NCBI GenBank assembly: GCA_045605805.1
Contig: JAZUQR010000027.1
Span: forward strand, 1 to 64,000
Source of the DNA: Alphaproteobacteria bacterium
GTDB lineage: Bacteria; Pseudomonadota; Alphaproteobacteria; CAAHEQ01; UBA3637
Length of the DNA: 64,000 bases
Direction of reading: 5' to 3'
The notes under the pieces were generated by a model. The model worked only from the letters and a program-made list of their open reading frames with translations. It searched no databases and was not told where the DNA came from. Of this stretch, positions 3,714 through 28,058 are shown one piece after another (within the stretch, counting starts at the first letter, position 1; each line of letters begins with the position of its first letter). A program made the translations under genes and the position numbers.

Positions 3714-6700
3714 TTAATAATTCCATTTTATTCCAACCATCCCCCGATAATCAGGTTCTGCATCAGCCTGATGATCCGGATTCAAGCGTACACCAAATTC
3801 ACTTTGAAGGTGCACTTCTTTATTCACATCCCCATGATAATATAAGGACATATCAATTTCTCTGGCATCCGGTTTCATAGAAGCACGATAAGTATCATAA
3901 TAGAAAATATCTTCCGTAGGGTGACGACCAGTTGGCAAAGTGACATTCATTGAACCGGAGCGCACACGAAGTGGCGAAGAAACCTGCAAACCAAACACAG
4001 TATTATCATCCGGTTGATAGCTGGCCGTCACAGCAAAGCTGTCACTTGTCATACGAGACAGATTCATCAAGCCACCATCAGAAGAAGTATTGGTTATACC
4101 ATAATAATACATGGCTTCCAAGCGCACCTTGTCCATAGGAGTAAAAGCAACACCCGCCCCCACAAAGTGAGTTTTTGCCTCTTGAATATCAAAGGCTCCG
4201 CTGGATACCATCCCCAAAGAAGAACCTGTTTCTTTCATCACACCCGTAGCCACCTTGAAGGCCAGCTTTTCCACAGGTTTGTAAACCACAGAAGTGGTAA
4301 AGGCCTGCATCCTGTTTTCCGGTTCATCAAAGCGTTCATCTTCTTCAAAGAAGCCGTTGCGCCCCATCGTCCAACCTGTTTCCACCGACCATTTTTGATT
4401 CATCTCATAGCCAGCTTCCAGCCCATAGGCATCTTTCATCTGAATAAAGGGATTAGTCAAACGGCGTTTCCAATAGGCCTCTGTGCCTTGTTTTGTATCT
4501 TGTGCATAGAAAAGCCCATAGCGCATTTTATTGCGTTTCAAGTTCATTTGAATCAAGCCCATAGGGATATCAGCCTCACGCACCCGATTCGTTTCTTGAC
4601 GATAAAGCATAGAAAACGATTCGCTGGGTTGCACCAAAACAGCATCTCGCCCCCGCATAAACAGTTTGAAATCTTCAAACGACTTGGCCTGACGCCGTGT
4701 CTGGATATTAAATAATTCAGAAGTTTTCAGTTGGAACGGCCGATCATAAGCATCAAAAGCCGTAAAAGTGGCAGGTAAAGCCGAAGCCACGGCAGGCGTT
4801 AAAGAAGCCACAGCGGTCAATTTTGTGGCCGCAGCCGTCACAACAATATCGCCCGGACCAAGGGGGGAATCACCACTTCTATGCACCCATAAACCATTTT
4901 TTCCACCCACAGGTCTTGTGGCCGCCTCTAAGTTCACAATACCTCGGCCAAAAATAGAGTTATAAGAATGCATGCCTTGCTGCTCTTCCCTATAAGTAGG
5001 GCCATAGTTAGCTATTTGGGTTGGGGTTGGCGTGATATAAGTGGCCGTCTTAAACAAAATATCCACAACTTCCTCACTTGTTAAATGCGGATAAGCCCCC
5101 ATCAACAAAGCCACCGACCCAGCCACAGAAGCAGCAGCCATAGATGTTCCATAATCCGTGGTATAACCATAGCCAGTCAGACCAATTTCGTTAGATGTAG
5201 ACAAAATACCATTTGCAACCCCTCCTACCCCCCCTGGGGCCACCAAACAATAACTGGCGGCAATACCACACGGTTGTGAATAAGCCGACATTTCCCAAGT
5301 ATAATTCCCATACATGTCTCGCTTACCATCAACGGAACCAACCGTAATATAAGAATTATACAAAGGATTAGTTTCCCCCACAGACGGCAAGGTCTTAAAA
5401 CCACCGGCATCATTTTCGTCCCAGGCTGTATCTTGCATCAACAAAGGAACAGCTGATTCCAAAGAAGGTTGCTTCACATCATATGTTGCATTCTGAGAAT
5501 TACCATTTGGCACAACAACAACTTTATTTGCATAAGTATCTATCTTTGTATAAGCCGCCCAACGACTGGCCCCAAAAACATCAACGCCTTCTTTTGCTTT
5601 CCATGTCTCATCGTCTTTGGAGAACGCCCCCAAAGCATCATTTCTGCGATCACCCGACAAAATTGTTGTATCGGTTGCGTGATCCAACAAAATAACATCG
5701 GAGTTGCTAAGTAAAGTACCCATCGCTTCAGGGGTAATGCCCATAACAATATCTTTATTCACAGGCAAAACAGCCGCATTATACGCAACGCCATACATTT
5801 GTGTCATCGGATCATCCAATTTCATTGCCGCCACAATACCCGCCAGAAAAGTACCCGCACTTGCATTTTTTTCATAATGTGGTGTTGGATCATTTAGATT
5901 ATATTCATACCCGTCAAGATACTGCACGTCATTAAAAATCTTTGCCTGTAGTTGTTCCCACGCAAGATATTTAGAACTTGTCTCTACAGTCGGCTCCTCT
6001 GTAGTCGTCCCCGTCAACACCCCCAAATCATTTATCATTAAAAAATTCCTGTTGCCATTTCCATCAAAAAAAACGGCAAAATTCGTACCAGATAAGGGAT
6101 GACCTGGATTCTGAACAGAAGCAGGACCATAACAATTTGTCTTATTTGAATCTTCACCGCATGGCCCATAATCATAATTAAAACCAATTGGTGTGCCTTT
6201 AATACCGGTGGCTAAATTATTCTTCACAGACCCAACTGTGGCCACATTCATGCCAGATTTTTGAGTACCTGTTTCCCCTGTGGGGGTATATTCTTGATTC
6301 GCCCACTTTGTTGCCTCGGGTGATAAAGAATCATAAAACGCTTTATTCACAGTATCCCAATCCCACACTTGAACGGTTGCATTCCCCTTATCACCCGTTG
6401 TGATGGAAGTATCTTGTAAACTCCCCCCCGAACCAATAGCCATACCGGAAGACAAAATCCCCACCGTCACCTTTTTGTCCGAAAGTTTGGGTTCCTTACC
6501 ATATGGCACATCTCCATCCTGCAAACGCCCATAAGGCGAAGTCCGCTTCACAAAATACCCCGAATACCCACGAGCATGGGCAGCCGCCGCATTAATCAAC
6601 GGCAAAAAATGCCCATCCTGATATTTAGCAGTGGATTCAATCTGCTCCACAGCTTCTTGTAAAGCATCTCCTTCAATATCCACAGGAGGTGGGGCAACCG

Positions 6701-7487
6701 TCCAACATTCAGCCGTTGTTTCATCCCGATAATAAGGAACAGTATTCTGTTCACTTTTGGAAACACACACATTCCCTTTCCAACAAGTGGAACAAGTAGC
6801 ACAATTTTCACCATTCCACCGTTGATCAGGCGGGCAAGAAGGCGTGCCGTTTCCGCCACCGCTGCCCAACACACCAATCAAAGCACCGGTCATACCAATA
6901 CCCAAAGCCGTATAGCCAATGGTTGCCCAATCAATCTTCAACGGACGACATTGTAATTTTTCACGCACTTCCATGGGAATGCGCCGCATACAGGATTGTG
7001 ACTGTATAGAACCAGCTCGCAACAAGGTTTGAATGGCATCACAATCATAATTGTACACCGCCTCACACAAGGCAGAATCACCTGTTTTTGGATCCACCAC
7101 ATCAATGTTTAAGCCTTCTTTTTTCCATGCCACCAATTGGTCTAAATCTTCCGCATGGGCGGCCGCATAAATCCGACTTGCCGTCACATAAGGAATGCGT
7201 TTCAAACACTTTGGATTCGGCTTTGCCCCCGCTTTCAAAAGGGTGGATGTAGCCAAACGATTTTGTGACCAAACTGCCTGACAGTACGGTGTATTACCGT
7301 TTTCATCTTCCATTTCCAAAGAATAACCCATTTTTTCCAAGCGTTGAATTGCATTCAAATCCCCTTGGCTTGCCGCCATATACATTCTGTTGCGAACAGA
7401 TGGTTCAAAGCCCTGCGCCAAAACACAAGGCGAAACACACACCAGTGCAGCAAAAACAAAAAACGGTATTTTTCTTACAAAATTCAA
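3714..7487 (-). CDS. Ankyrin-repeat + S8 subtilase-like (probably inactive) + C-terminal beta-barrel protein
   Basis: Likely TTG start at 7487 after an AAGGGG SD (ORF open to 7571). Signal peptide and two ankyrin blocks (DENGNTPYCQAV, DPKTGDSALCEAV). GTSMAA retained, but the Asp motif reads GILSSG and the His motif reads SAGTFLAG. Ends in the beta-signal-like VGIKWNY. Confidence 0.85.
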   Translation of the reverse strand: MNFVRKIPFFVFAALVCVSPCVLAQGFEPSVRNRMYMAASQGDLNAIQRLEKMGYSLEMEDENGNTPYCQAVWSQNRLATSTLLKAGAKPNPKCLKRIPYVTASRIYAAAHAEDLDQLVAWKKEGLNIDVVDPKTGDSALCEAVYNYDCDAIQTLLRAGSIQSQSCMRRIPMEVREKLQCRPLKIDWATIGYTALGIGMTGALIGVLGSGGGNGTPSCPPDQRWNGENCATCSTCWKGNVCVSKSEQNTVPYYRDETTAECWTVAPPPVDIEGDALQEAVEQIESTAKYQDGHFLPLINAAAAHARGYSGYFVKRTSPYGRLQDGDVPYGKEPKLSDKKVTVGILSSGMAIGSGGSLQDTSITTGDKGNATVQVWDWDTVNKAFYDSLSPEATKWANQEYTPTGETGTQKSGMNVATVGSVKNNLATGIKGTPIGFNYDYGPCGEDSNKTNCYGPASVQNPGHPLSGTNFAVFFDGNGNRNFLMINDLGVLTGTTTEEPTVETSSKYLAWEQLQAKIFNDVQYLDGYEYNLNDPTPHYEKNASAGTFLAGIVAAMKLDDPMTQMYGVAYNAAVLPVNKDIVMGITPEAMGTLLSNSDVILLDHATDTTILSGDRRNDALGAFSKDDETWKAKEGVDVFGASRWAAYTKIDTYANKVVVVPNGNSQNATYDVKQPSLESAVPLLMQDTAWDENDAGGFKTLPSVGETNPLYNSYITVGSVDGKRDMYGNYTWEMSAYSQPCGIAASYCLVAPGGVGGVANGILSTSNEIGLTGYGYTTDYGTSMAAASVAGSVALLMGAYPHLTSEEVVDILFKTATYITPTPTQIANYGPTYREEQQGMHSYNSIFGRGIVNLEAATRPVGGKNGLWVHRSGDSPLGPGDIVVTAAATKLTAVASLTPAVASALPATFTAFDAYDRPFQLKTSELFNIQTRRQAKSFEDFKLFMRGRDAVLVQPSESFSMLYRQETNRVREADIPMGLIQMNLKRNKMRYGLFYAQDTKQGTEAYWKRRLTNPFIQMKDAYGLEAGYEMNQKWSVETGWTMGRNGFFEEDERFDEPENRMQAFTTSVVYKPVEKLAFKVATGVMKETGSSLGMVSSGAFDIQEAKTHFVGAGVAFTPMDKVRLEAMYYYGITNTSSDGGLMNLSRMTSDSFAVTASYQPDDNTVFGLQVSSPLRVRSGSMNVTLPTGRHPTEDIFYYDTYRASMKPDAREIDMSLYYHGDVNKEVHLQSEFGVRLNPDHQADAEPDYRGMVGIKWNY

Positions 7488-7578
7488 ATAATTACCCCTT
7501 TTCAACTGTAAAACTGGGAATAGACTAGCATATCTTTTCAAGAAATACAACCCCAAAAAAGCCAAAAACAAAGTTTTT

Positions 7579-10500
7579 TTATAACCCTAAACGCAAACCA
7601 ACCAAAGCACGCCAATCAGGCGCAGCCCCTGCCACATGATCCGGATTCAAACGCACCCCCAATTCGCTTTTGAAAAACACATTCTCCTGCACCGCATCGG
7701 TATAATAAAAACCAAGGTCATATTCCCGAGCATTGGGTTTCAAATCCGCCTGCACAACATCATGATATACCGCATCGGAAGCCACATCTCTGGCCACAGG
7801 CAAAGAAACCGTTGCCCTGCCTTGTGTAATCCGCAAAGGCGAAACAAATTGGAATCCCAGTTCACGATTTTGGTCCATCTGCCACAAAGCCGTCACAGCA
7901 AAGCTGTCACTTTTCAAATCAGCCATCTGCACCAACGAATTTTGTTTGGAAACCTGCGTCCTGCCGGTATAATACATTCCCTCCACAACAAACGAATCTG
8001 TCACACGAAAAGTCACACCACCGCCCACAAACGAGGTTTTACCGTTGCCAAACTTAAAAGCACCACGGCCCCACATTCCAAGCACAGAGCCTTGTTCATT
8101 GGCCACACCAGCTGTCAGCTTGACACCAAGTTTATCCCATCCGTTATATTGAAGAGTGCTTTGAAAGAGCGACGATTTATTGTGTTCCATATCGTTCAAA
8201 TCATCCACATCAACAAAACCGTTTTGTCCAACTTGTCCCAACACAGTGGCTTGCCAGTTTTTGGATATATCATAACTAACCGCACCACCCCACACTTCCT
8301 TCATCTGGGCATAAGGAGCCAACATCAAACGTTCAAAGTAAGTACCGCCACTTGTTGTTGTGTCTTCCGAATAAAAAGTTTTGAATTGCCATTTATCAAA
8401 CGGCCGAACAGAAAACAAAACAGAACCTTTTTTCACATCCGAAGCCCGATTGGAAAGGCGTTCGGAAAAGCGCATACGAACCGTATCCGTCTGTGCCACC
8501 ACCACATCTTTACCGTTCATAAACGACTTAAAACGACCATCCAACTTATTCTCCCGCTTGGCAACCCGCACAAAATCGGCCGTCTTGCGTTCAAAAGCAC
8601 GATTATATTTATCAAACACAACCATTTTGTTGGGCAACGCATTGGCCAAGCCTGACAAAGCAGCAGGCACAGAAGCCGAAGAAGCAGCCGCCAACACAAC
8701 CTCACTGTTGACATCATCTCCCAAAACGATTTTAGGCAAACCTACAGGATTGGTGGCTGCTTTCAAATTTACCAAACCATGTCCATAGATTTCATCCACA
8801 CCTTCATCGCCTAAATCCGTTGCCGTTTCAAATAAAATCTGAACCACCTCTTGATTCGTTAAATGCGGAAAAGCCCCTTTAAGCACAGCCAACGCCCCCG
8901 ATACAATTGGTGTCGCCATAGAAGTGCCTTGCATCCCCATATAAGTGGAATTTTTTGTACCATCATCGTTGGTGGAAAAGTTGGTGGAAAAAATGAATTG
9001 ATCCCCATCCCCCCCTGGGGCAGCAAGACAATAATTTTGTGTCACACCACATTTAGCCGAATAAGAAGCCAATTCATTATTGGAATTCAACGCAATCACA
9101 TTCACCAATAAATTGGTTAAATCACGCCCCTTACTCCCATCATACTCATCCGACAAAGGCGCATAAGACAGAACAGACGGCTGATAAGGCTTGTCTCCAT
9201 CCCAAGTATAATTCCCAGCAGCCACAACCATAATTTTATTGTTATCTGCCACCGCATCATAAAAGGCGTTTATTTTAGTCTCGCTTGCATACTCCTTAAA
9301 AAACGCCGCAGCATCATTCTCTGTTTGAATGTCAGAATTATCTTTAAGAGAAGCAATACTAAAATTCAAAATATCAGCCAAAGGCACAACAGAAGCAATT
9401 GTCGGCCATACAGGAAGATCTAAATCAATCCTCACCGGTAAAAGAGCTGCATTATAAGCCACCCCCATCATTCCCACATTATTTTTTGTGGCCCCAATCA
9501 AACCGGCCACATGTGTTCCGTGGTTATTATAGTTGGTCCGTTCTTTCACAAAAGCATTCGTTCCATACCAAAATTTCCCCTGACCATCATTCTCTAATGG
9601 ATATGCTTGGCCATCTCTCGGATTATATAAATAAGTCTGTCCGTCTTTTTCAAAAGACCTGAAAACCACTCCTTCCGCATTTACAAACTCTTTATAAACT
9701 AAAGGTGTGGTATCTGTTGAGTTATAGGTGTAATTTGTGTACTTTGAAGCCCAAGCATACCACGCATTTTCTGAAATTTTCCGTGTGTACGGAGTGCTGT
9801 CATTAACTTGAAAAGTTGCCACACTCTCCGCTGGATTATATGACCAACAATTTGTGCTTTCACCCGATGAACAAACACCATAGACAAAATTTGCCCCCGA
9901 AAGCATATTATTTTTTAAGTCTTCATGTTCAGCCCAAACACCATCATCAAAAACTGCCACACGCACCTTATTTTCGGAAATAGCCTCTTCACCAATACCA
10001 TCCAAAGTTCCGTCATCAAAACGCTTAACTTTATACCCTGTGTACCCTCTGGCATACGCATCAGCAGCATGAATGGCCCCCAAAAAATTATAACTCATTG
10101 GATTGTCATAAATCGGTGAAGCCTTTGCTTGATATTCCTCAGTTTCAAAATCTTTTGGATCCAATTTCAAAGGGGCTTGCCAAGATTCAATTTTATCTCC
10201 CGAACCACCAGAGCCACCACTGCCCCAAGCCGCTATCACACCAGCCGCCAAACCACCCACAACAAGCTCGCCAAAGCCAAGCATGGGAAAGGCAAACGCT
10301 TTGTCGGAACCACCCAACACATACACAGATTGTGCTGTGTCAAAACGGCCTTTATAAAAGGTATTTGCTTTTGGTTGATTGGCATAAAAAGAAGCCACTT
10401 GATTTTGGGGCAATTGACGCACACAGGCCACATATGGGCTGGCTCCTTGTGTCAACAGCATTTCATAACCTTCATAATCCCGTGTTAAAATCGTTTGACA

Positions 10501-10683
10501 TAAAGGGGTCATCCCATGTGCATCAGGTTGATTCAAATCAAAACCAGTTTGTCTTATTTTTTTCAACCCCTCTAAATCACGATTTTGCACAACCTCCAGC
10601 ACCTGTTGATAGTGCATAAAAGAGGTAGCCATTACCGAAGAGCTGGCCATTAAAAAAGAAAAAAATAAAACTTTGGCGTTCAT
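7579..10683 (-). CDS. Ankyrin-repeat + S8 serine peptidase + C-terminal beta-barrel protein
   Basis: Signal peptide; ankyrin-like DAHGMTPLCQTI; full triad VAVFDDG / HGTHVAG / GTSMATP; oxyanion AAGN; amphipathic C-terminal strands. Confidence 0.9.
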   Translation of the reverse strand: MNAKVLFFSFLMASSSVMATSFMHYQQVLEVVQNRDLEGLKKIRQTGFDLNQPDAHGMTPLCQTILTRDYEGYEMLLTQGASPYVACVRQLPQNQVASFYANQPKANTFYKGRFDTAQSVYVLGGSDKAFAFPMLGFGELVVGGLAAGVIAAWGSGGSGGSGDKIESWQAPLKLDPKDFETEEYQAKASPIYDNPMSYNFLGAIHAADAYARGYTGYKVKRFDDGTLDGIGEEAISENKVRVAVFDDGVWAEHEDLKNNMLSGANFVYGVCSSGESTNCWSYNPAESVATFQVNDSTPYTRKISENAWYAWASKYTNYTYNSTDTTPLVYKEFVNAEGVVFRSFEKDGQTYLYNPRDGQAYPLENDGQGKFWYGTNAFVKERTNYNNHGTHVAGLIGATKNNVGMMGVAYNAALLPVRIDLDLPVWPTIASVVPLADILNFSIASLKDNSDIQTENDAAAFFKEYASETKINAFYDAVADNNKIMVVAAGNYTWDGDKPYQPSVLSYAPLSDEYDGSKGRDLTNLLVNVIALNSNNELASYSAKCGVTQNYCLAAPGGDGDQFIFSTNFSTNDDGTKNSTYMGMQGTSMATPIVSGALAVLKGAFPHLTNQEVVQILFETATDLGDEGVDEIYGHGLVNLKAATNPVGLPKIVLGDDVNSEVVLAAASSASVPAALSGLANALPNKMVVFDKYNRAFERKTADFVRVAKRENKLDGRFKSFMNGKDVVVAQTDTVRMRFSERLSNRASDVKKGSVLFSVRPFDKWQFKTFYSEDTTTSGGTYFERLMLAPYAQMKEVWGGAVSYDISKNWQATVLGQVGQNGFVDVDDLNDMEHNKSSLFQSTLQYNGWDKLGVKLTAGVANEQGSVLGMWGRGAFKFGNGKTSFVGGGVTFRVTDSFVVEGMYYTGRTQVSKQNSLVQMADLKSDSFAVTALWQMDQNRELGFQFVSPLRITQGRATVSLPVARDVASDAVYHDVVQADLKPNAREYDLGFYYTDAVQENVFFKSELGVRLNPDHVAGAAPDWRALVGLRLGL

Positions 10684-12784: not shown

Positions 12785-13519
12785 ATGCGTTATAAATTAG
12801 TGATAGAGTATGATGGACACCCCTTTGTCGGTTGGCAAGAACAAGCCGAACAAACCTCTGTTCAAGGTGTCTTACAAAAAGCCCTTGAAACGGCCTTGCG
12901 TCATCCTGTCACCGTATGGGGATCAGGCCGCACAGACACAGGCGTTCACGCCATCGCACAAGTCGCCCACATTGAAACAAATGCGGCACTCAACACCTAT
13001 CGTTTGTTTGAATCATTAAACGCATTGGTCCGCCCCTACCCCATAAGCATAAAATCAATTGAAAAAGCATCTGATGATTTTCATGCCAGATTTTCGGCCA
13101 AAAAGCGTCACTATGTCTACAAAATCCAAAACACACCCTATCCGCCCTCCCTCAACAAAGGAAAAGTGTGGTGGATACGGCAAAAATTGGATACAGACAA
13201 AATGCAACAAGCCGCCAATTTACTACTTGGCAAGCACGATTTTTCAACTTTCCGAGCAAGCGAATGTCAAGCCAAAAGCCCCATCAAAACATTGGATGAA
13301 TGTACAATCATCCCCAACGGCGAATTCATTGAATGTCACCTCAGTGCAAAATCCTTTTTACACCATCAAGTAAGAAACATTGTTGGCTCATTGGTTTTGG
13401 TGGGACAAGGTAAATGGTCTGTGGATAAGTTCAAACACGCTTTTGAAGCCTGTGACAGAACCAAGGGTGGCCCCACAGCACCGGCCGAAGGGCTTTATTT
13501 TGAATCAGTAGAATATTAA
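12785..13519 (+). CDS. truA: tRNA pseudouridine(38-40) synthase
   Basis: YDG..F.GWQ, GRTDTGVHA, FHARFSA, FLHHQVR. Confidence 0.97.
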   Translation: MRYKLVIEYDGHPFVGWQEQAEQTSVQGVLQKALETALRHPVTVWGSGRTDTGVHAIAQVAHIETNAALNTYRLFESLNALVRPYPISIKSIEKASDDFHARFSAKKRHYVYKIQNTPYPPSLNKGKVWWIRQKLDTDKMQQAANLLLGKHDFSTFRASECQAKSPIKTLDECTIIPNGEFIECHLSAKSFLHHQVRNIVGSLVLVGQGKWSVDKFKHAFEACDRTKGGPTAPAEGLYFESVEY

Positions 13520-14502
13520 ACACCTTCTAATTGCTGCAATAAATCTTGCATATCTTGTGGCATCGGTACTTCAAAAACCATAGACTTCCCTGTTGTCGGA
13601 TGAACAAAACCCAACAACCCTGCATGCAAAGCCTGACGGGGAAAATCACGCAAGAACTGGGGCGCATTTTTCATACCATGCCCATAGGTATAATCGCCCA
13701 CAAGAGGATGACCAATAGAGCTCATATGCACACGAATCTGATGTGTTCGTCCTGTTTCCAACACACATTGCACATGGCTGACCAGCCCCCCCATAAACAC
13801 ATTCAAGCGTTCATAATGCGTCACAGCCGGCTTACCACCTGTTTTGACAACAGCCATCTTTTGGCGATTGGTTGAAGAACGACCAATATTCCCCTCAATC
13901 CGCCCTTTTTCCATAGGCACACACCCCCAAACAAAAGCCTGATAAACCCGTTCAATGGAATGAAGCTCAAATTGTTTGGCCAACGCTTGATGAGCCAAAT
14001 CGTTTTTGGCAACCACCAACAAACCACTTGTATCTTTGTCAATCCGATGCACAATACCAGGGCGTTCCACTCCACCAATGCCGGAAAGCGAACCTTTACA
14101 ATGAAATAACAAACCGTTCACAAGGGTATTATCCCAATTACCAGCCCCTGGATGAACCACCATTCCTGCCGGCTTGTTCACAACAACCACATCCGCATCT
14201 TCATACACAATATCCAAAGCCATTTCCTCAGGTAAAGCCTCAGGCAACCGAGGGGCAGGCAAAGCCACCTCAAATACCTGACCTTGTTCCACCTTCATAT
14301 CCGGCCGATTGGCAAAAATATCTTGATTTTTTAACAACACTTGATTTTCTTCAATCAAACGAATGAAGGTATTGCGAGACACTTTTGGAAAACAGCTGGC
14401 CAAAAACTTATCCAAACGCATTTTTCCCTGTTCTGCCGATACAGGGGGCGACACAAAAAGGTCTGTTTTCACTTCTTCAAAATCAATGTCATCCAAACTC
14501 AT
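13516..14502 (-). CDS. rluD: RluA/RluD-family 23S rRNA pseudouridine synthase
   Basis: S4-like RLDKFLA, NKPAGMVVHP, HRIDKDTSG, TGRTHQIRVH, RQALHA; start placed at ATG 14502. Confidence 0.92.
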   Translation of the reverse strand: MSLDDIDFEEVKTDLFVSPPVSAEQGKMRLDKFLASCFPKVSRNTFIRLIEENQVLLKNQDIFANRPDMKVEQGQVFEVALPAPRLPEALPEEMALDIVYEDADVVVVNKPAGMVVHPGAGNWDNTLVNGLLFHCKGSLSGIGGVERPGIVHRIDKDTSGLLVVAKNDLAHQALAKQFELHSIERVYQAFVWGCVPMEKGRIEGNIGRSSTNRQKMAVVKTGGKPAVTHYERLNVFMGGLVSHVQCVLETGRTHQIRVHMSSIGHPLVGDYTYGHGMKNAPQFLRDFPRQALHAGLLGFVHPTTGKSMVFEVPMPQDMQDLLQQLEGV

Positions 14503-14617
14503 ACAACAAAGTATATCAAAAAACAAACATTTTCGCAAACTTTTTATTGACACAACCCTTATTACAAAGTAATATCAGAATGAAAACCAGTGATGTTTAA
14601 CAAAAAAAGGGAGTCAC

Positions 14618-16333
14618 TTGACCAACCAAAGCAAAGCGTTAAAAGGCCTAACAATCCTATGTCTGACAGTGTGTTTCATGCTGACGGCAGGTTTGTTTTT
14701 TGCTTCTTATGAAACAAAACATCCCAAATGGATACCCCACATTCCAAGTGAAAACCAAATCTATCTCAACATCCAAAATCAATATGCAAAAAAAATAGAA
14801 CACACCATTTTCAAATTACTGGAACCATTGGTCGGTCCAAACAAAGTGCGCATTGCTGTTCAATTGGATATCAATTTGAAAAATGCAAAGCACAACACCA
14901 AAACATTATCACCACAATCAAGTGAAACCCTATCCAGCCAACAAACATTTGAAAAAGAAATCCATAACCTCATCAACCAAATGCACATCAGTGTGGTCAT
15001 AGACGGCAACACCCGCAAAGGGGATAAGGGCATCTATCAAGCACGTCCACCAAAAGAAATGGAGGCATATAAACGTTTAATCAAAAGTGCCGTTGGATTC
15101 AACCCACAACGAGGCGACACATTGGAAGTGCAAAATATGCCGTTTGAGTTCAAGCCCAAAGCACATCCGCCACACAACCATTCAAAGCACCTTGGCACAG
15201 CAATAGTTTTAATTGGTCTGATCTGCATTCTGTGGGTTTTAAGCAAAAGCTCTGCAACACCCCCCCAAACAACGCTGACACAACAAACATTAAACGAAAT
15301 CAATCAAAATCCGGCTAAAGCCATCACTGTTTTGAAAAATTGGTTCTATATGCCTCCTCAACCTAAAAATCACAATTGGACACCTATCCAAAAAATCGGC
15401 ATTATCCTGTTGGCATTGGAAGAAGAAAGCGTGCGTCAGATTTTAGTTGCTCTGGATGATAATGAAGTCAGAACAGTGGCCAAAACAATGACAACACTGG
15501 GTGTAATTCCACCAAAAGAATCTGCCCAAGTTTTAACCGAATTACACCATGCCATGTTTAACGGTTCGGCCGTTGTGGGTAATCCCACTCGTGTTCAACA
15601 GATTTTATCCGAAAGCACACGAAACGAAACCATAAAATTAAAAGAAAGCATCCAACCGACACACAGCCATCTGTGGCAAGAATTGGAAAAAATGAATAAT
15701 GATTTTGTGGCCGAAAAACTTCAAAATCTCGCCCCAGAAAAAGTGGCCTATATCTTATATCATATCAACAGTCAAAAGGCCTCACAGCTGGTTCAAACAA
15801 TGCCTGCTAAAAAAACAAGCCAGATTTTAATCCATTTAAGTCATATTGGTTCCATCACACAAGAAACAAATAAAAAAATGGAACAAGAAGCCGTGCAATG
15901 GCTGCAAAACACATTGAACACTTCACATCATATAAGCGGACAAGAAAAAACAACTCAAATTTTGGCTAACCTGACAAACCGCACTGTAAGCAACGCAGTC
16001 ATACAAGATTTAACACGCCAAGAACCGGATTTGGGCAAAAATCTGGCATTAAATTTGTTAAAATATCAAGACATCGGCCATTGGTCGGATGAAAACATTC
16101 AAATCTTGTTGCGTCACACGCCAAAAGCACAAGCCTTAACCGCTTTTGTAAACGCACCTATTTTAACCAAACAGGCCATCCAACGCAACATCCCCGAAAG
16201 CCTATGGCAAGAATTAAAAAAAGAAATCCAAAAAATGGAAAAACAACTCACACCGGAAGAAAGTTTCTCGGCCCAAAACGCCATGTTGGAAACAGCCAAA
16301 AAACTCATCCGTCAAGAAAAAATAAAATTGTAA
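14618..16333 (+). CDS. Fusion of a truncated FliF (C-terminal ring domain + TM) with a divergent FliG
   Basis: FliF-like LLEPLVGPNKVRIAVQLD, ISVVIDG, LIKSAVGFNPQRGDTLEVQNMPF, NPAKAITVLKNW, then FliG-N-like IQKIGIILLALEEE..LDDNEVR and FliG M/C-like helices in the same frame; TTG start with AAGGGAG SD. Confidence 0.8.
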   Translation: MTNQSKALKGLTILCLTVCFMLTAGLFFASYETKHPKWIPHIPSENQIYLNIQNQYAKKIEHTIFKLLEPLVGPNKVRIAVQLDINLKNAKHNTKTLSPQSSETLSSQQTFEKEIHNLINQMHISVVIDGNTRKGDKGIYQARPPKEMEAYKRLIKSAVGFNPQRGDTLEVQNMPFEFKPKAHPPHNHSKHLGTAIVLIGLICILWVLSKSSATPPQTTLTQQTLNEINQNPAKAITVLKNWFYMPPQPKNHNWTPIQKIGIILLALEEESVRQILVALDDNEVRTVAKTMTTLGVIPPKESAQVLTELHHAMFNGSAVVGNPTRVQQILSESTRNETIKLKESIQPTHSHLWQELEKMNNDFVAEKLQNLAPEKVAYILYHINSQKASQLVQTMPAKKTSQILIHLSHIGSITQETNKKMEQEAVQWLQNTLNTSHHISGQEKTTQILANLTNRTVSNAVIQDLTRQEPDLGKNLALNLLKYQDIGHWSDENIQILLRHTPKAQALTAFVNAPILTKQAIQRNIPESLWQELKKEIQKMEKQLTPEESFSAQNAMLETAKKLIRQEKIKL

Positions 16334-16343: not shown

Positions 16344-16949
16344 ATGCCTTTTCTCCGCCCCATCCACATCACCACAAAAGAACCAAGCATCTATATTTTA
16401 CGAAGCATATCCAACCAAACAGCCTTAAATGCTTTAACCATCAAATTGGCCGAAAAGTTCAAAGAAAGCAACAAGAAAGTGTTGATTTTTGATGCCATGT
16501 TGGGGTTAAAGAATATGCCGTATTTCAACGAAAACCAACACAAAATCCCCGCTGTCTTTCAAGGTGATATTCCCTTAAACGAGTTGATACAAACACACAA
16601 TAAAATTGATATCATCACTGGCATATCTTCCACAAATTGGACAAGTTTATGCCAAACAATGCAATACAAATTAAAACAAGACTTAAAAATTTTAAGTTCT
16701 AATTATGATGTTGTTCTTATCAATCACTCTGGTTGCATCCGAAGCAAAATCCTGTGTGATTTGGGGCAAAACCTGTGGATAAGTTCAAACGAGAATAAAA
16801 CATTGATCAAAACTTTAACAAAAGCCGCCCAAAAGCCCCCCATTCAATTGATGATAAGTGACAAAGTCACCCCACAAGAAACCATTCAATTAAACCTATT
16901 GTTAAAAACAATCTGCCCAACAGCAGAAAGAATAGATTTTTTGAAATAA
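16344..16949 (+). CDS. Degenerate FlhG/MinD-like protein lacking the P-loop
   Basis: KKVLIFDAMLGLKN (cf. DxDLGLAN), IDIITG, YDVVLIN; no GKGGVGKT; SD AAGGAG. Confidence 0.7.
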   Translation: MPFLRPIHITTKEPSIYILRSISNQTALNALTIKLAEKFKESNKKVLIFDAMLGLKNMPYFNENQHKIPAVFQGDIPLNELIQTHNKIDIITGISSTNWTSLCQTMQYKLKQDLKILSSNYDVVLINHSGCIRSKILCDLGQNLWISSNENKTLIKTLTKAAQKPPIQLMISDKVTPQETIQLNLLLKTICPTAERIDFLK

Positions 16950-17031: not shown

Positions 17032-19671
17032 ATGCGATTAAAAAACATATTTGGTTCAGCCAATGAACGCTACTTAAAAAAGTTTTCAAAACAAATTAAA
17101 CAAATCAATGCATTGGAAGAACAATATAAAACTCTAACGGACGATGAATTAAAAGCCAAAACAACCGAATTCAAAGCCCGATTGAAAAAAAACGAAACCT
17201 TGTGGAACATTTTGCCAGAAGCCTTTGCCACAGTACGAGAAGCCGCTTGGCGCACATTGGGATTGCGCCCCTTTGATGTACAATTATTGGGGGGTATGGT
17301 TTTATTTGACAACAAAATTGCCGAAATGAAAACAGGTGAAGGTAAAACATTAGTCGCCACATTGCCGGTTTATTTGAATGCGTTAACCGGAAAAGGTGTT
17401 CATGTCGTCACTGTCAATGATTATCTTGCCTCTCGTGACAGTGAATGGATGGGAAAAATCTATCGCTTTTTGGGGCTTACCGTTGGCTGTATCGTTGGCG
17501 GTATGGATCACGAACAACGCAAAGCCGCCTATGCCTGCGATATAACCTATGCCACAAACAATGAATTAGGATTTGACTATTTGCGTGACAATATGTGTGG
17601 CAATAAAGACCAAATGGTACAACGCCCGTTTAACTTTGCCATCGTGGATGAAGTGGACTCTATTTTAATTGACGAAGCCCGCACCCCGTTGATTATTTCC
17701 GGTCCGGCCGAAGATTCATCGGAACGCTATATCGCTGTGGATAAAATGATGCTCAACATCCGTCCGGAACACTACGAAAAAGACGAAAAACATAAAAATG
17801 TCACTTTAACCGATGAAGGGATGGAATTTGTAGAAGAGGCACTGCACAATGCCGAATTGATGACAGGTGGCTTGTACGATACAGAAAACATTGCTTTTGT
17901 TCACCATGTGGAACAGGCTTTACGGGCCCATACGCTTTTTCAAAAAGATGTAGACTATATTGTCAAAGACAACAAGGTCATGATTATTGACGAATTCACA
18001 GGCCGCATTATGGACGGCCGACGCTATTCCAACGGTCTGCATCAAGCACTGGAAGCCAAAGAAGGGGTTGAAATCCAGCCCGAAAACCAAACCTTGGCCT
18101 CCATCACATACCAAAACTATTTCCGTATGTATCCATCATTAGCCGGTATGACAGGTACCGCTATGACCGAAGCTGCCGAATTTGAAAGCATCTATAAATT
18201 ACAGGTTATTGATATTCCAACAAACAAACCTGTGGCACGCAAAGACGAACAAGATGCCATCTATCATACAGCCGAAGAAAAATATCAAGCCATTATTGAA
18301 GAAATAAAAAAAGTCCATGAACGGGGACAACCGATTCTGGTGGGAACAACAAGCATTGAAAAATCGGAAATACTAGCTCGTCTATTGAAAGAAAAAACAA
18401 ACATTCCGTTTAATGTATTAAACGCCCGTCACCACGAACAAGAGGCACATATCATTGCCCAAGCAGGTGTCCCAGGTGCCGTCACCATTGCTACAAATAT
18501 GGCCGGCCGAGGCACAGACATTAAATTGGGTGGCAACTTTGAAATGAAGTTTGCCGAAGAAAAAGCCCTTCACCCAGAAATGCCTGATGAAGAATTGACC
18601 AAAAAAATCCAAGAAGAAATCGCCAAAGGCAAAGAAAAAGCCTTATCCGCAGGCGGATTGTATGTATTGGGTTCTGAACGCCATGAAAGCCGCCGTATTG
18701 ATAACCAATTGCGTGGTCGTTCTGGCCGTCAAGGGGATCCAGGGCAATCTAAGTTCTATGTAAGCCTTCAAGATGATTTAATGCGCATTTTTGGTTCTGA
18801 ACGAATCGGACGCATCTTAAAAACAATGGGCTTAAAAGAAGGGGAAGCCATTGAACACCCTTGGATAAGCAAAGCCATAGCCAAAGCCCAGCAAAAAGTT
18901 GAAGAATATCATTTTGATGTTCGTAAAAACCTGTTAAAATTTGACGATGTCACAAATGATCAACGCAAAATTATTTACGAACAACGCAAAGAATTGATGG
19001 AAATGGACAATGTTTTACCGGTAATGCAAGATATGCAACAAGATGCCATTTCCGCTTTAATTTTTTCAATCGCTCCGGAACGATCGGCCCCAGAAGATTG
19101 GAATGAAGAAGAATTGCGTCAAGAAACAATTAAACTATTGGGGATAGATGCCCCCTTTGCCGCATGGAAAAATGAACCTGGCATTGAACCAGAAGTAATG
19201 ATTGAACGGCTGATAAAAATGGCCAATTCGGCTTGGGAAGAAAAAACAAAAATCTTGCCCCCAGACTTCAAAAAAGAGTTTGAACGCACACTTTTAATTC
19301 AAACCATTGACACCTTGTGGAAAGAGCATTTACAAAGTTTGGACTTTATGAAAACATCCATCGGATTGCGTGCCTATGGTCAACAAAACCCTATCAACGC
19401 CTTCAAACAAGAGGCCTTTCAACTTTTCCAAAGCATGATAGGACGAGCTCGGGAAAAAATAACCGAAACAATGGGGCGTTTGGAATTACAGCTGTCTGCA
19501 CCTGCCCCAACACAAACCCAACAAAACACCCCCGAATTAGCGGCAGAAGAAAATCCTTTACCCCCCATTGACAAAGAAAAACCCAACTTTGACAACACCT
19601 CACGCAACGCACCATGTCCTTGCGGTTCTGGCAAAAAATACAAGCATTGTTGTGGGCAATTAAAGGTATAA
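17032..19671 (+). CDS. secA: Preprotein translocase subunit SecA
   Basis: [40 protein letters not shown]-terminal SEC-C motif [13 protein letters not shown]. Confidence 0.99.
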
Positions 19672-20350: not shown

Positions 20351-20435
<85 letters not shown>

Positions 20436-20499
20436 CTTAAAAAAAAATGATGGACATCCTTTTTCATTTTCTGATATAATGCAAAATAAGGAGAGGAAT

Positions 20500-20994
20500 A
20501 TGTCTATTTTTGAATTATCCAACACATTAAAAACAAAATCAATTAAACCGGCTGGACGGGCTGAAACCCCAAAGAAACATGTCTCTATCGTCCCTCAACC
20601 ACAAACACCGGCTGATTTGGAAAAAATGGCAATGGAAGCTATGGCCGACCTGTCAGCAAAGTTTCCTGCATGGGCCAGCGGAGATGTTCAAAAAATCAAG
20701 CAATTATTGATTCAAGCCAATGAATTATATGACCAACAACGCACAGACCTCATTCGCCAAAAAGTTTATCCAAAAGCCCATGACTTAAAAGGGCAAGGCA
20801 CAACATTTGGCTATCCGCTGATTACCGACATCGGTTCACACATGTGTCAATTGATTACAACAAAATCAAACTATACCCCAAAAGATGTGCGCACCCTTCA
20901 ACAAGATGCCTTGATGATGGAAACAATCTTGTGGAAAAAACTTAAAGGTGACGGTGGCTTAAAAGGAGCCGAGATATTGGAGAAATTAAAATAA
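20500..20994 (+). CDS. Hpt (histidine phosphotransfer) domain protein
   Basis: AHDLKGQGTTFGYPLIT motif; start moved to ATG 20500 (GGAGAGG SD) because the longer ORF overlaps the tRNA. Confidence 0.8.
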   Translation: MSIFELSNTLKTKSIKPAGRAETPKKHVSIVPQPQTPADLEKMAMEAMADLSAKFPAWASGDVQKIKQLLIQANELYDQQRTDLIRQKVYPKAHDLKGQGTTFGYPLITDIGSHMCQLITTKSNYTPKDVRTLQQDALMMETILWKKLKGDGGLKGAEILEKLK

Positions 20995-24323: not shown

Positions 24324-24662
24324 TTATTGAAAATCATCAATAGCGTCTGTATAATCAATATCACCTCCATCAGAATCGCTACTGACAGCGTAGTTCACCA
24401 CTTGGGAAGCCACAGCCAAAATAGCCAAACCAACGGCCAAAATCGCCACCTTTTTCCATTCCAATCTACCAAAGATAGCTGCAACGGCAAAACCAACCAA
24501 AGCAAAACCACCTAAAATAAACACAATTTGACGCACGTTTTGGAACACATCCCCCAACTTTTGGGACGCTGTGGAGGCGATATCTTGTGCAAATGCAGCA
24601 CCTGCCACACACAAAGTGGCAACAATGGCCAATTGGCCCATAATTTTCAAAGTTTTATTCAT
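24324..24662 (-). CDS. VirB2/TrbC-like pilin
   Basis: Signal peptide ending AFA-Q, amphipathic helix, two hydrophobic helices separated by FGRLEWKK (VirB2-type G..W loop), acidic tail; SD AAGGAG. Confidence 0.7.
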   Translation of the reverse strand: MNKTLKIMGQLAIVATLCVAGAAFAQDIASTASQKLGDVFQNVRQIVFILGGFALVGFAVAAIFGRLEWKKVAILAVGLAILAVASQVVNYAVSSDSDGGDIDYTDAIDDFQ

Positions 24663-24851
24663 TTTTTCTCCTTTTGTTTATTAAATACAGATTGAAACAG
24701 CATCAATCTTAAAATCATCATACTCTTATTTTTTTAATTTTCAAACCTTTTTTCACTTTTTTAAGTAAAAGATGTGTTTTTTTTCCTTTTATTAATAAAA
24801 AATTAAGTTTTAACCTTTTATTATGAAGCAGATAAGTTGGAAGGTAAAAAA

Positions 24852-25613
24852 ATGCATTTTCAAAAAAAAATAACAAAAGTTTTGTTGTTGGTTTTACTTG
24901 GCATCCCTCAAATGGTGCATGCTCAAGATAATCAAGACCTTTTGTTGTTTGACAATTCTTCACAAGATTTTCTGCTTCCTTCTTATTTAGATACCAACCA
25001 ACCAACACCCGAAGTGCCAACGGATATTGATATTTTAACCGAAATTTTTGGCAATCAGGCCACCCAACAAGTTGCTCAACCCAAAACACAAACCACCCAA
25101 CTGTCACAACAAACCAAGCAACCAAAGGAATTGCTAACACCTTTGGATCCATTACCAACACTAACCGAAAAACCACTTCAACTGAATAAACCCAAAATTT
25201 ACACTTCGCAATACGCCGTCAAGCTGTTAAACAAGGAAGAAGGCAAAAACAAAATCAACATGACCATACCAACTGACCTGCGCTTGACATTCACACCAAA
25301 CAGCACACAATTGACGGAATCTGCCCTCAACTGGATATCAGCCTATGCCTTACATATTCAAAAAGACCCTCGGTTAGAGGCTATCATCCGAATCAGCAAC
25401 AAAAACTGGCCACTTCAACAGGCACGCCTGTCTTTAATTGTTAAAAAAATGATGGAAAAAGGCCTTTCAACACAACAAATTCGGATTTTACAATCCAACC
25501 GTGATGAAAATACTTTAATTATCGGCAAACAAACCAATAAAAACCAAACACCTATCATCACCCCACAAGAAACAAAAAAAATAATAAAAAAACAAAAAAC
25601 TTTATTGTGGTAA
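24852..25613 (+). CDS. Exported protein with a degenerate OmpA-like C-terminal domain; first gene of the pilus operon
   Basis: Signal peptide (VHA-Q); LTFTPNSTQLTESA...LQQARLSLIVKKMMEKGLSTQQI resembles the OmpA_C pattern. Confidence 0.55.
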   Translation: MHFQKKITKVLLLVLLGIPQMVHAQDNQDLLLFDNSSQDFLLPSYLDTNQPTPEVPTDIDILTEIFGNQATQQVAQPKTQTTQLSQQTKQPKELLTPLDPLPTLTEKPLQLNKPKIYTSQYAVKLLNKEEGKNKINMTIPTDLRLTFTPNSTQLTESALNWISAYALHIQKDPRLEAIIRISNKNWPLQQARLSLIVKKMMEKGLSTQQIRILQSNRDENTLIIGKQTNKNQTPIITPQETKKIIKKQKTLLW

Positions 25614-25663
25614 GTGTTGTATATTAAAAAAAAATGTGCTACGATAACAAAAAGGAGATTAAA

Positions 25664-26440
25664 ATGACAAAACAGATTCATTATTTATTGGTTGCTATCG
25701 CTTTAACCAGCACATTCAATACTGCCTCTGCAGAAGATGTGTATATAGATTGCACAAACCCAAATATCAACCAAGACAAATGCGCGGCATTATATCACCA
25801 ACAAGTAATCAACACACCAGCCCCCCTTCAACAAAAAAACTTAAAACCTGATGAAGCGGTTATCAATGCCACGCCTGAGATGAATGAACAAACCTTAGAA
25901 AACGCCCCTGTTCAGCAAATTATTATGCGTGATACAGCAGCTCCTATCGCCATTTCACAACCCATGAACGAATTGGAAGAAGTGGGGTCAGAATATGCTT
26001 TTTACAAAACACAAACTGGTGGTTTGGTTGTAGAACGAGATGTCACACAAGAAGTGGGGGAAGATGGTACAACCATCCAAACCACCCGCACAACCGAAAC
26101 AACAGTCACACCATCCTATGTTGAAATGCCATCCATTTCGGCCCATCGTCGGTCTGATAAAATTGCCTACGGCGAAACAGCCCAAGATTGGGAAGCCTTA
26201 AATGGTGACAGCTTGCGCAACCTGTTGATAGATTGGGGAAAGAAATCCGGATGGACAGTTGTTTGGAAACTGGACAGAGATTATATTTTAGAAGCTGGCG
26301 TTGTGTTCCGTGGCACATTCACCGAAGTGTCCAGCGCAATCATTCGCACCTTTGCACGGGCAAATCCGGCCCCAATCGGCACATTCTATAAAGGAAACAG
26401 GGTATTAGTAATCAATACACAGGAGGATGACAATGGTTAA
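25664..26440 (+). CDS. TcpQ/PilL-type type IVb pilus accessory protein
   Basis: Signal peptide; C-terminal WEALNGDSLRNLLIDWGKKSGWTVVW...F.G.F...FYKGNRVLVI matches the TcpQ domain pattern; SD AAGGAG. Confidence 0.8.
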   Translation: MTKQIHYLLVAIALTSTFNTASAEDVYIDCTNPNINQDKCAALYHQQVINTPAPLQQKNLKPDEAVINATPEMNEQTLENAPVQQIIMRDTAAPIAISQPMNELEEVGSEYAFYKTQTGGLVVERDVTQEVGEDGTTIQTTRTTETTVTPSYVEMPSISAHRRSDKIAYGETAQDWEALNGDSLRNLLIDWGKKSGWTVVWKLDRDYILEAGVVFRGTFTEVSSAIIRTFARANPAPIGTFYKGNRVLVINTQEDDNG

Positions 26441-28058
26441 AAAAACAGCCCTTTCACTGATTGCACTGATTGCAGGATGCACCATGTTGGCGTCCTGTAA
26501 TAAATATATTTCAGATACAAACAAGAAAATTGAAACAACATTGGAACGGGTGGAAGAATATAATATGCAGGCACAAATGCCTGATTTACCTGAACCAACG
26601 GATACTGTTCGCATTCAAAATGACATTTGGTTGGGAAATGAAAGCATAAAAATTATGGAAGGCGATGCGCTGCCCGACTGGCTGGAAGAAGAAGATGGCA
26701 TTACATTGGTCATTCAAGAAGGGGCCACTTTACCAGATGTTGCCCAACAAATTTCTGATTTAATCAACATTCCGGTGCGTTTGGATGACTTAAAAACAGA
26801 CGAAGCCGTCCCCGAAAACACTGTGGCTGTACGGTACAGCGGCAAACTCAGCGGTCTGTTAAACTATCTGGCTGACCGTTATGGAGTTTATTGGAAATAT
26901 GACGATAAAATGATTCAATTTTTTGCCAATGAAACACGGGTGTTCACAATTTATGCCTTGCCCACAGAAACCACATTACAAACAAGTTTAACTGGGGCCA
27001 CAATGGGTGAAAACTCGGGTGGTGGGAATGCAAGCTCTAATCTATCCACCTCTGCGAACCTTGCTTTATGGGATAACATTGAAGAAGGCGTAAAACAAAT
27101 CGTGGGCGAAAAAGGTAAATTATCGTTCAGCCGTGTCACCGGATCTATCACCGTAAGCGGAAACCCACACATTGTCCGAAAAGTCGGCAAATATGTGGCA
27201 AACTGGAATGAAAAATTGTCCCGCCAAGTGGCCATCACTGTACGCATTTTGCAAGTGACCACCAACAATGAAGACAACTATGGCCTAGACTTAAAAGCCG
27301 TTTTCAACAACTCTAATTTTGGTCTGACCCTTCTCAGTCCGGACAGACTAGCACCGGCCGTTGCGCCAACATCCGGCAGTTTAGCCATGTCATTGGTTAG
27401 ACCAAGCAGCAAGTTTTCAGGTTCAGATGCTTTAATCAAAGCCTTTTCCACACAAGGAAAAACCAGATTATTGACCAGCGCAAGTGTCACAACAATGAAC
27501 AATAAAGTGGCACCTGTCCAATTGACAACAAGCAAAAACTATGTAAAAGAAATCAATGTCACAACCACAGGGTCGGGTGAAGACCAAAATGTGGAAACAG
27601 ATATGGATACAGATACCCTCACCTATGGTTTTACAATGGATATTTTACCCCGTATTTTGGATCATGGTCGGTTGATTTTGATGTTCTCCCTTACAATGAC
27701 AGACTTGATTGATTTGGAAGAATACTCCTCTGCATCTGGGTCAACAAAAGAAGACACCGAAACAGATAATAACACAGATAACGACCAAGAAAAAGAAGAA
27801 ACACGGGTGCAATTGCCCACAATGACAATGCGTGGATTTATGCAAGAAATCGCCATGCGGTCGGGCTACACCTTGGTTTTAACTGGATTTGAAACAGTCA
27901 ATGATTCAACCGAATCAAGTGGCATTGGCAAAGCCAAGATGGGGTTGCTGGGTGGTAAAGCCTACAATAACAATGAACATCAAGTTCTGGTCATCTTAAT
28001 CACACCAGAGGTTTTACAATCTCCTCTGTCACAAGAATCCTTGATGCGTGATTACTAA
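26427..28058 (+). CDS. pilN: Type IVb pilus lipoprotein secretin (PilN/BfpB family)
   Basis: Lipobox LASC; YSGKLSGLLNYLA..GVYW, TRVFTI.ALP, RQVAITVRIL, secretin core ending VLVILITP. Confidence 0.88.
   Translation: MTMVKKTALSLIALIAGCTMLASCNKYISDTNKKIETTLERVEEYNMQAQMPDLPEPTDTVRIQNDIWLGNESIKIMEGDALPDWLEEEDGITLVIQEGATLPDVAQQISDLINIPVRLDDLKTDEAVPENTVAVRYSGKLSGLLNYLADRYGVYWKYDDKMIQFFANETRVFTIYALPTETTLQTSLTGATMGENSGGGNASSNLSTSANLALWDNIEEGVKQIVGEKGKLSFSRVTGSITVSGNPHIVRKVGKYVANWNEKLSRQVAITVRILQVTTNNEDNYGLDLKAVFNNSNFGLTLLSPDRLAPAVAPTSGSLAMSLVRPSSKFSGSDALIKAFSTQGKTRLLTSASVTTMNNKVAPVQLTTSKNYVKEINVTTTGSGEDQNVETDMDTDTLTYGFTMDILPRILDHGRLILMFSLTMTDLIDLEEYSSASGSTKEDTETDNNTDNDQEKEETRVQLPTMTMRGFMQEIAMRSGYTLVLTGFETVNDSTESSGIGKAKMGLLGGKAYNNNEHQVLVILITPEVLQSPLSQESLMRDY

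Follow-up and report, generated by a model that had tools for sequence, protein, structure and literature searches.

A single intact gene at positions 14618..16333 of the stretch analysed here (64,000 nucleotides, hereafter the window), which comes from an uncultured gut-type alphaproteobacterium, joins a reduced form of the flagellar protein FliF to a complete FliG. The membrane-supramembrane (MS) ring and FliG are the first flagellar parts to assemble and the seat of torque. The fusion keeps the parts that self-assemble, namely ring-building motif 3 (RBM3), the joint between the FliF tail and FliG_N, and the FliG scaffold, and swaps the contacts of the motor; in this respect it is a natural experiment. 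Next to it lies a gene for a small protein that appears to derive from FlhG and has lost its ATPase residues. The reading we favor, to which we give about an even chance (a probability of roughly 0.5), is that the pair represents a reused flagellar core, in which a non-rotating ring together with its inactivated FlhG relative acts as a positional scaffold.

The fusion gene and its parts are as follows, with lengths in amino acids (aa); AF2 denotes the AlphaFold2 model.
14618..16333, plus strand: fusion gene, FliF(RBM3-only)-FliG, TTG start; 571 aa, intact open reading frame (ORF).
14636..14710, plus strand: first transmembrane helix (TM1), about aa 7-31, from hydropathy; AF2 helix 2-30.
14750..15145, plus strand: RBM3-equivalent periplasmic ring-building motif, aa 45-176, from profile, AF2, Foldseek and alignment.
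15179..15253, plus strand: second transmembrane helix (TM2), about aa 188-212, from hydropathy; AF2 helix 188-212.
15299..15355, plus strand: FliF C-terminal tail, aa 228-246, including NPAKAITVLKNW, from profile and alignment with canonical FliF.
15377..15652, plus strand: FliG N-terminal domain, aa 254-345, from Pfam FliG_N.
15653..15925, plus strand: FliG middle domain, aa 346-436, from Pfam FliG_M, profile and alignment.
15926..16330, plus strand: FliG C-terminal domain, aa 437-571, from Pfam FliG_C and alignment.

The polypeptide thus runs from TM1 through a single RBM3, TM2 and the FliF C-tail into a complete FliG with its N, M and C domains, and about seven residues join the tail to FliG_N. 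A sequence-only reading of the window had proposed this order for an ORF of 571 residues, and Pfam, hydropathy and alignments bear it out. The hidden Markov model search which that reading proposed as a check places all four expected families above their curated cut-offs: YscJ_FliF_C (PF08345; 69 bits, E-value 7.7e-19, cut-off 23.8), FliG_N (62.7 bits, 5.6e-17), FliG_M (33.5 bits, 5e-8) and FliG_C (49.5 bits, 5.7e-13). The TTG start is preceded, a few bases 5', by a Shine-Dalgarno-like GGGAG run, and family homologues start at the same position.

What is missing from the FliF part is equally clear. YscJ_FliF (PF01514), the family that covers the RBM1/2 region, has no Pfam match in the fusion; the canonical FliF of locus L015, used as a control, scores 205.9 bits. 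Alignment with five canonical FliF proteins from loci fetched in this analysis shows that the RBM1/RBM2 block is wholly missing, as is an insert of about 60 residues inside RBM3, which we take, from the Salmonella MS-ring structures, to be the beta-collar. Both absences had been claimed from the sequence, and both hold. A shorter linker than in the five canonical proteins joins TM2 to the C-tail, and tail residues 231-242 align well with the canonical tails.

Structural comparison gives the same picture. In the AF2 model a transmembrane helix is followed by an RBM3-like domain, a further transmembrane helix, two short tail helices and an all-helical FliG. The RBM3 domain, aa 45-173 in the model, has the arrangement alpha-beta, loop, beta-alpha-beta, and a loop of 25 aa with a low predicted local distance difference test (pLDDT) score (aa 87-111, lowest in confidence over about 91-110) occupies the place of the beta-collar. 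Foldseek searches of the PDB with the model return FliG chains first (3hjl, 5.8e-10) and then FliF RBM3 rings (8ftf, 5.9e-5). With a profile built from 23 family members, the best PDB sequence match is an engineered Vibrio FliF-FliG fusion (8z4d, 9.5e-36); the profile also matches full-length Aquifex FliG (3hjl, 1.9e-30; query 253-572 on chain 7-327) and, through query 46-238, residues 233-509 of Salmonella FliF.

The FliG part retains its three domains and has lost most of the residues through which FliG meets its motor partners. EHPQR is the FliM-binding surface of FliG_M, MFxF is the hinge motif of FliG, and the charges of the torque helix that meet the stator in Escherichia coli are K264, R281, D288, D289 and R297. 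We aligned the fusions with five canonical FliG sequences, in which all five charges are kept, and tallied the residues of 23 family members; motifs are named, and positions numbered, as in the FliG of E. coli and Thermotoga maritima. EHPQ reads LAPE at aa 371-374 of the window fusion. In place of its glutamate all 23 members have L, Y, V or I (L in the window), and in place of its glutamine all have E; the proline is kept in 20/23, the window included. The R160-equivalent arginine of EHPQR is histidine in every member, and in the window this residue (H406) sits within an invariant HLSHIG (406-411). On the torque helix, MSxRA reads IPESL within aa 524-530, and GPVR reads roughly EKQL/KQLT at aa 541-545. 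At the K264-equivalent every member has V, I, A or T (V511 in the window); the R281-equivalent is never arginine (K in one member; S528 in the window); the D288-equivalent is E in 6/23 and never D (K535 in the window); and the R297-equivalent is R in one member of the 23 (T545 in the window).

By alignment, therefore, other residues stand in place of the FliM-contact motif and of four of the five stator charges across the family. The letters read earlier from the sequence (LAPE, LLKY, IPESL and EKQL) are correct. The broader statement that the motor motifs are altered stands for these contacts and needs trimming in two places. The D289-equivalent is largely acidic, being E or D in 18/23 members (E536 in the window). 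MFxF, which reads LLKY at aa 480-483, has L in 23/23 members, I, M, V or L at position 2 and F in 22/23 at position 4, so that its hydrophobic character seems to be retained though the letters differ, and the motif is probably only partly changed across the family.

The substitutions are conserved within the family, and the new motifs are invariant or nearly so; for this reason the changes are neither decay nor scatter. The former torque helix, which in the window opens with NIPESLW (524-530), carries a new NxPxxxW motif, with N524 in 22/23 members, P526 in 23/23 and W530 in 22/23. That the whole FliG_C fold is kept, with NxPxxxW fixed exactly on the former torque helix, is what one would expect if the protein formed a ring akin to a rotor, which a non-flagellar 5:2 ion motor of the Tol/Exb/Agl/Gld type drives or grips through the remodelled C-terminal helix, in a rotary or force-transducing machine outside the flagellum; the 30 short-fusion rows with an altered helix that fall on one side of a single branch of the tree described below (support 99) fit this as well. 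Charged positions on the helix differ between family members, which one would not expect of a conserved electrostatic contact with a stator, and the Pfam scan of the window ORFs finds no stator-like gene nearby. The proposal is wholly speculative, and we regard it as very unlikely.

The second gene of the unit and its immediate surroundings are the following.
16344..16949, plus strand: partner gene, FlhG/FleN/MinD fold, ATG start; 201 aa.
14547..14575, plus strand: promoter-like site TTGACA-17-TAATAT upstream of the fusion, 10/12, a consensus match only.
13516..14553, minus strand: RluD-type pseudouridine synthase, the divergent upstream neighbour; this flank is conserved in all nine fusion loci.
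17032..19671, plus strand: secA, downstream of the partner; conserved in loci L001-L007.

The ATG of the partner lies 10 nt past the fusion stop, behind a Shine-Dalgarno-like AGGAG run; the gap between the genes has no terminator-like site, and the partner is co-linear with the fusion in 7/7 close loci (L001-L007). The promoter-like site is the best-scoring of nine such sites; shuffled sequences give a mean of 6.4, so that the site count is not enriched. The sequence-only reading had placed the fusion between rluD and secA. For rluD this is right; secA is not its direct neighbour, as the 201-aa partner gene, which that reading overlooked and which tells more than any other neighbour, stands between.

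Alone, the partner gives in Pfam only a below-cut-off match to AAA_31 (E-value 0.004). A profile of eight partner orthologues finds as its best PDB match the FlhG of Geobacillus (4rz3, 5.2e-9), followed by Wzc-type kinases, FleN and MinD, and the NCBIfam MinD model is matched by 6/8 members of the partner family. The AF2 model is confident (pLDDT 86; predicted template-modelling score, pTM, 0.82), and its top nine PDB matches in Foldseek are all FlhG or FleN, with query-normalised template-modelling scores of about 0.6-0.73. The best matches by sequence and fold are 4rz2/4rz3, 5j1j and 8p53, and the partner further resembles FlhG/FleN in a stretch of the form hxhFD..LGL.N, kept in its family, and in its genomic linkage to MS-ring and C-ring (cytoplasmic ring) genes. 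A collection search returns only nine close relatives, of 200-208 aa and unnamed or called 'hypothetical'; beyond them come eight MinD-type proteins of 258-296 aa, two of them named FlhG by one source.

The partner differs from FlhG/FleN where these proteins handle nucleotide. We aligned seven partner-family rows with five FlhG-like rows. The Walker A motif SGKGGVGKT is replaced, with loss of both lysines, in 7/7 rows of the family, and the second aspartate of the DxD stretch, the second switch aspartate, is lost. FlhG/FleN proteins have about 260-295 aa versus about 200 aa in the partner, whose family ends some 85 aligned residues before the FlhG-like rows; the missing C-terminal part is presumably the region with the amphipathic membrane-targeting helix of FlhG. 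The alignment suggests a protein derived from FlhG that should neither bind nor hydrolyze ATP in the manner of MinD, since the Walker A lysines and the second DxD aspartate are gone. A complex prediction for fusion aa 222-571 with the partner gave a score of 0.00, that is, no verdict, and counts neither for nor against binding. For the question of how flagellar placement proteins dock on rings in the absence of ATP cycling, the fusion and the inactivated FlhG offer a small two-gene system.

That the fusion is natural and maintained follows from its relatives. A clustered protein collection gave 35 matches, 29 of them full-length fusions (544-608 aa, 36-98% identity). By precomputed annotation 26 of the 29 have all four Pfam domains, and the other three are without only the FliG_M call. 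The six remaining matches are ordinary FliF (five) or FliG (one). Scanning loci in one genome per species yielded 16 loci. Full-length fusions occur in L001-L007, with 36-50% identity to that of the window, and in L008 and L009, where the identity is 24-26%, the length 622 aa and the set of four domains the same. L010-L013, L015 and L016, with ordinary separate fliF and fliG genes, and L014, an ordinary flagellar cluster, served as canonical controls only. In all nine fusion loci the ORF is intact and placed beside rluD. An assembly artefact is rejected by these nine loci and the 29 full-length homologues, and the claim that an intact natural fusion is kept in relatives is confirmed by the same counts.

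Conservation is uneven along the protein. Across 23 fusion sequences 68 columns are invariant, concentrated in the second half of RBM3 (15/65), the FliF tail (6/19) and FliG_N (20/92); the RBM3 motif overall has 19, and the transmembrane helices and linkers have none. The rate of non-synonymous change (dN) is far below that of synonymous change (dS), in keeping with the constraint that the sequence-only reading wished to see examined. The ratio dN/dS is about 0.09-0.34 in pairs with computable dS, values that are rough as dS is saturated (>1) in every pair; the closest pair, L002/L003, has dN 0.16 and dS 1.74. At non-synonymous sites the fusion evolves about four times faster than secA (dN 0.435 vs 0.104, window vs L001), and this pace, with the loss of the motor motifs, could be taken to mean that the gene has no function, is left over from a lost flagellum and has stayed open by chance. 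We find this scarcely credible. The ORF is intact in 9/9 loci and in 29 homologues down to 36% identity, the invariant columns include the new family-specific motifs, dN/dS remains low where it is computable, and the partner is likewise conserved.

The wider family was approached by searching 1.84 billion cluster representatives with a profile, which gave 10,859 matches at E<=1e-3 and 129 at E<=1e-30. The top 150 representatives comprise ordinary FliG proteins of about 330 aa and many proteins of 507-650 aa. A Pfam scan covered 33 of these 150. Short fusions, with YscJ_FliF_C and FliG domains and no YscJ_FliF, account for 20/33; seven, of 666-895 aa, have YscJ_FliF too and are natural fusions of a full-length FliF to FliG; and one is a FliM-FliG fusion of 996 aa with DUF4116 repeats. 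The full-length fusions and the one FliM-FliG protein are P0080, P0085, P0087, P0093, P0121, P0124, P0130 and P0140.

A motif table over 43 rows divides the fusions into four groups. Group A is the family of the window protein with P0039, P0044-P0052 and P0061; its members have other residues in place of EHPQR, carry HL[ST]H and have a W-type C-terminal helix. Group B consists of 12 short fusions, most of which keep EYPQT and the arginine, all with the W-type helix. Group C consists of three short fusions with fully canonical motifs (P0057, P0071 and P0075), and group D of full-length fusions, canonical in most. The members of group C have 507-648 aa, are without RBM1/2 and keep EHPQ and MSxRA, with GPVR in 2/3; they combine an RBM3-only FliF with an apparently working rotor protein, which raises the question of how an export gate would be seated.

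We then have a quick maximum-likelihood tree of the FliG parts (65 rows, two of them on long branches; midpoint root for drawing only), with support from the Shimodaira-Hasegawa-like approximate likelihood-ratio test (SH-aLRT). One branch (SH-aLRT 99) splits the 30 rows of groups A and B from 35 others, which are 25 canonical FliG and 10 fusion rows of groups C and D. Group A is nested within A and B, in a 19-row set with support 98. As we read these sequences, the joining of FliF to FliG probably arose several times, and the window protein would be a member of an old, diversified branch of short fusions and not a case of recent local decay. A search with 21 distant short fusions added 24 full-length proteins of 598-664 aa from uncultured Alphaproteobacteria, whose only names are 'hypothetical protein' or 'FliG C-terminal domain-containing protein'. 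Look-alikes with the same mix of domains in Bdellovibrionota, Bacteroidota, Balneolota, Elusimicrobiota and Thermodesulfobacteriota all score <0.9 and are leads only.

A broader reading is that groups A and B form a deep, coherent and unnamed family of RBM3-only FliF-FliG rings that make up, with lineage-specific adaptors such as the inactivated FlhG, a distinct non-flagellar envelope machine. Such a machine might assemble itself and serve as a positional organiser, or a motor of non-flagellar type might even grip the ring; the machine would have branched off from all the sampled canonical rotor FliG proteins, and would not be a recent local relic. We hold this only tentatively and think it rather unlikely in this full form.

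The surroundings of the gene bear on a further alternative. In L001-L007 the gene order is as in the window: a divergent rluD-type gene, the fusion, a gene for about 200 aa, and secA; the contig of L003 ends inside rluD and secA. The fusion sits among the housekeeping genes rluD, truA, fmt, def and secA in conserved order. No flagellar Pfam family was matched by any of the 52 other ORFs when the 53 non-overlapping window ORFs of at least 70 aa were scanned, so that the earlier remark that the window has no other flagellar gene is sustained; nor is any flagellar gene among the called ORFs in the flanks of L001-L009 (up to 10 kb each side), each of which either has a blastp match to a non-flagellar window gene or was scanned against Pfam.

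These observations speak against a rival in which the fusion belongs, perhaps as a paralogous or accessory ring, to a real but divergent flagellum or to an export apparatus of flagellar descent whose other genes lie elsewhere in the genome. So do the absence of RBM1/2 and of the collar, the replacement of the stator- and FliM-contact residues in 23/23 or nearly all members, and scores far below cut-off with the NCBIfam equivalog models for fliF (TIGR00206; 37.1 bits vs 129.75) and fliG (TIGR00207; 67.5 bits vs 226.7). This rival would agree with the descent of both genes from flagellar genes, with the FliM-binding EYPQT and arginine kept in group B, and with a view that covers 64 kb of the host genome; the canonical motifs of P0057, P0071 and P0075 further mean that an RBM3-only fusion is by itself no proof of a non-motor role. 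On balance we judge a divergent flagellum unlikely.

Under the positional-scaffold reading, the locus would be a two-gene operon derived from the flagellar core. The fusion would be an inner-membrane protein with the topology of FliF (N-terminus in, periplasmic loop, C-terminus in), and its product would most likely self-assemble into a membrane ring, with a thin ring of RBM3 in the periplasm and one of FliG in the cytoplasm. We infer ring formation because RBM3 and laboratory FliF-FliG fusions both self-assemble: isolated RBM3 forms rings (excerpted text of PMC8786727), as does a laboratory FliF-FliG fusion (excerpted text of PMC6079021). The ring would neither export nor rotate, because it has no RBM2 ring for the export gate, no rod collar and no stator charges, and it would lack the FliM-binding EHPQR surface. 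The invariant HLSHIG of FliG_M and the NxPxxxW of the former torque helix may be new surfaces that point to new partners. The FlhG-derived protein would then be a fixed adaptor on or near the ring and not a cycling switch, and the unit might serve as an envelope scaffold or landmark that recruits or excludes other machinery. A division-site or pole-linked role is one example, such as FlhG has with MS-ring and switch proteins in Campylobacter jejuni, where they block polar division according to the excerpted text of PMC3228812. The sequence-only reading had likewise proposed a non-motility role, as a polar landmark or a scaffold for secretion or a pilus; its intact, conserved fusion with altered motor contacts is supported, and the role itself would be conjecture. 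How much of a rotor suffices for a ring, and how such a ring is reused, are questions on which the fusion may be informative.

Several points weigh against this proposal. Self-assembly of the fusion is predicted from its parts, and the missing collar counts against it. The AF2 model of the fusion (mean pLDDT 76, pTM 0.31) suggests domains that are credible individually and a mutual arrangement that is not. The saturation of dS mentioned above leaves the dN/dS values rough. Four representatives of fragment length (P0041, P0043, P0054 and P0064; 150-265 aa) match parts of the fusion at 1e-95 to 1e-45, and could be contig-end truncations or split genes. The group B relatives that keep EYPQT and the arginine may for that reason still bind FliM-like proteins. 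In L008 the fusion lies beside rluD with no partner, and is followed by an unknown minus-strand ORF, MoxR and DUF58, so the wider family can do without the partner; in L009 the contig stops shortly past the fusion. Elsewhere FlhG is known to regulate flagella, and its relic could therefore point to a flagellar context. Finally, the view of flagellar genes spans 64 kb and flanks of up to 10 kb, and a full set may lie elsewhere in the genome.

Comparison with known systems shows what is old and what is new in this locus. Canonical FliF and FliG resemble the fusion in the two transmembrane helices that flank a periplasmic RBM3, in a FliF C-tail that precedes FliG_N, a pair that co-folds in the motor, and in FliG domains N, M and C, all recognisable here. 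They differ in being two polypeptides, in having RBM1/RBM2, the beta-collar and a longer cytoplasmic linker, and in keeping an intact EHPQR surface and the five stator charges. The engineered Salmonella and Vibrio fusions (8z4d/8z4g) have the same order and junction, with the FliF tail followed by FliG_N, and they assemble rings; they differ in their full-length FliF (945 aa in total for 8z4d) and intact motor motifs.

The closest natural precedent is chlamydial. The excerpted text of Bergeron 2016 (PMC4768692) describes, in Chlamydiaceae, a natural fusion of a shortened FliF to a FliG-like sequence in one polypeptide of about 330 aa, in an organism not thought to be flagellated, and suggests for it either a role alongside the injectisome or a trace of an ancestral complex. 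As described there, that protein keeps RBM2 and one further RBM-like region with a FliG-M-like part only, whereas the window protein has 571 aa, RBM3 alone, the C-tail and all three FliG domains. The window protein is moreover alphaproteobacterial and paired with an FlhG-derived gene, and a setting free of flagellar genes is seen here for 64 kb and the locus flanks. The concept of a natural FliF-FliG fusion outside a motor context is thus not new; what is new here is the retained domain set, the phylum and the FlhG-derived partner. Our literature search, in which most subscription journals fell outside coverage, found no description of an RBM3-only natural fusion with a full FliG, or of its FlhG-like partner. 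The suggestion of an undescribed system accordingly survives for this architecture and its partner, and gives way, on the excerpted text of PMC4768692, for FliF-FliG fusions as such. The locus bears on non-motility roles of flagellar cores outside Chlamydia.

For the partner, the excerpted text of PMC12826062 reports that FlhG contacts C-ring proteins. The FlhG/FliF/switch set of C. jejuni (PMC3228812, in excerpt) offers a precedent for a non-motility positional function by the same parts; it differs in that C. jejuni has these parts in a flagellum that works, with an ATPase-active FlhG, and the resemblance is one of functional analogy only.

Other genes of the window and of the related loci deserve brief mention. 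In L007 the region 1744-4314, a few kb upstream of the fusion locus, holds genes for an Elm1-like protein (Mito_fiss_Elm1) and a MipZ ATPase; from this MipZ ATPase it follows that the lineage has a MipZ-type division-site system. A type IVb-pilus-like cluster at 24324-33309 of the window encodes a TcpQ-domain protein, a secretin, PilO (PAP_PilO), a T2SSE ATPase and a T2SSF platform protein, and includes a TrbC/VirB2-like pilin ORF (24324-24659, minus strand). A conserved link between this cluster and the fusion was considered and rejected: homologues of its first two ORFs follow L001, L002 and L005, not L006 or L007.

On the other side of the fusion, the minus strand at 3714-10683 encodes two tandem giant S8 subtilases of 1285 and 1034 aa, the first of which has a weak, below-cut-off ankyrin-repeat match; homologues stand at the same place in L001, L002 and L004, and one of the second also in L006. 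The ORF at 20383-20994 starts inside tRNA-Leu (20351-20435), and its real start is probably later. Its homologues in the loci have 163-168 aa; no Pfam family was matched, and a response regulator and a histidine kinase come after it.

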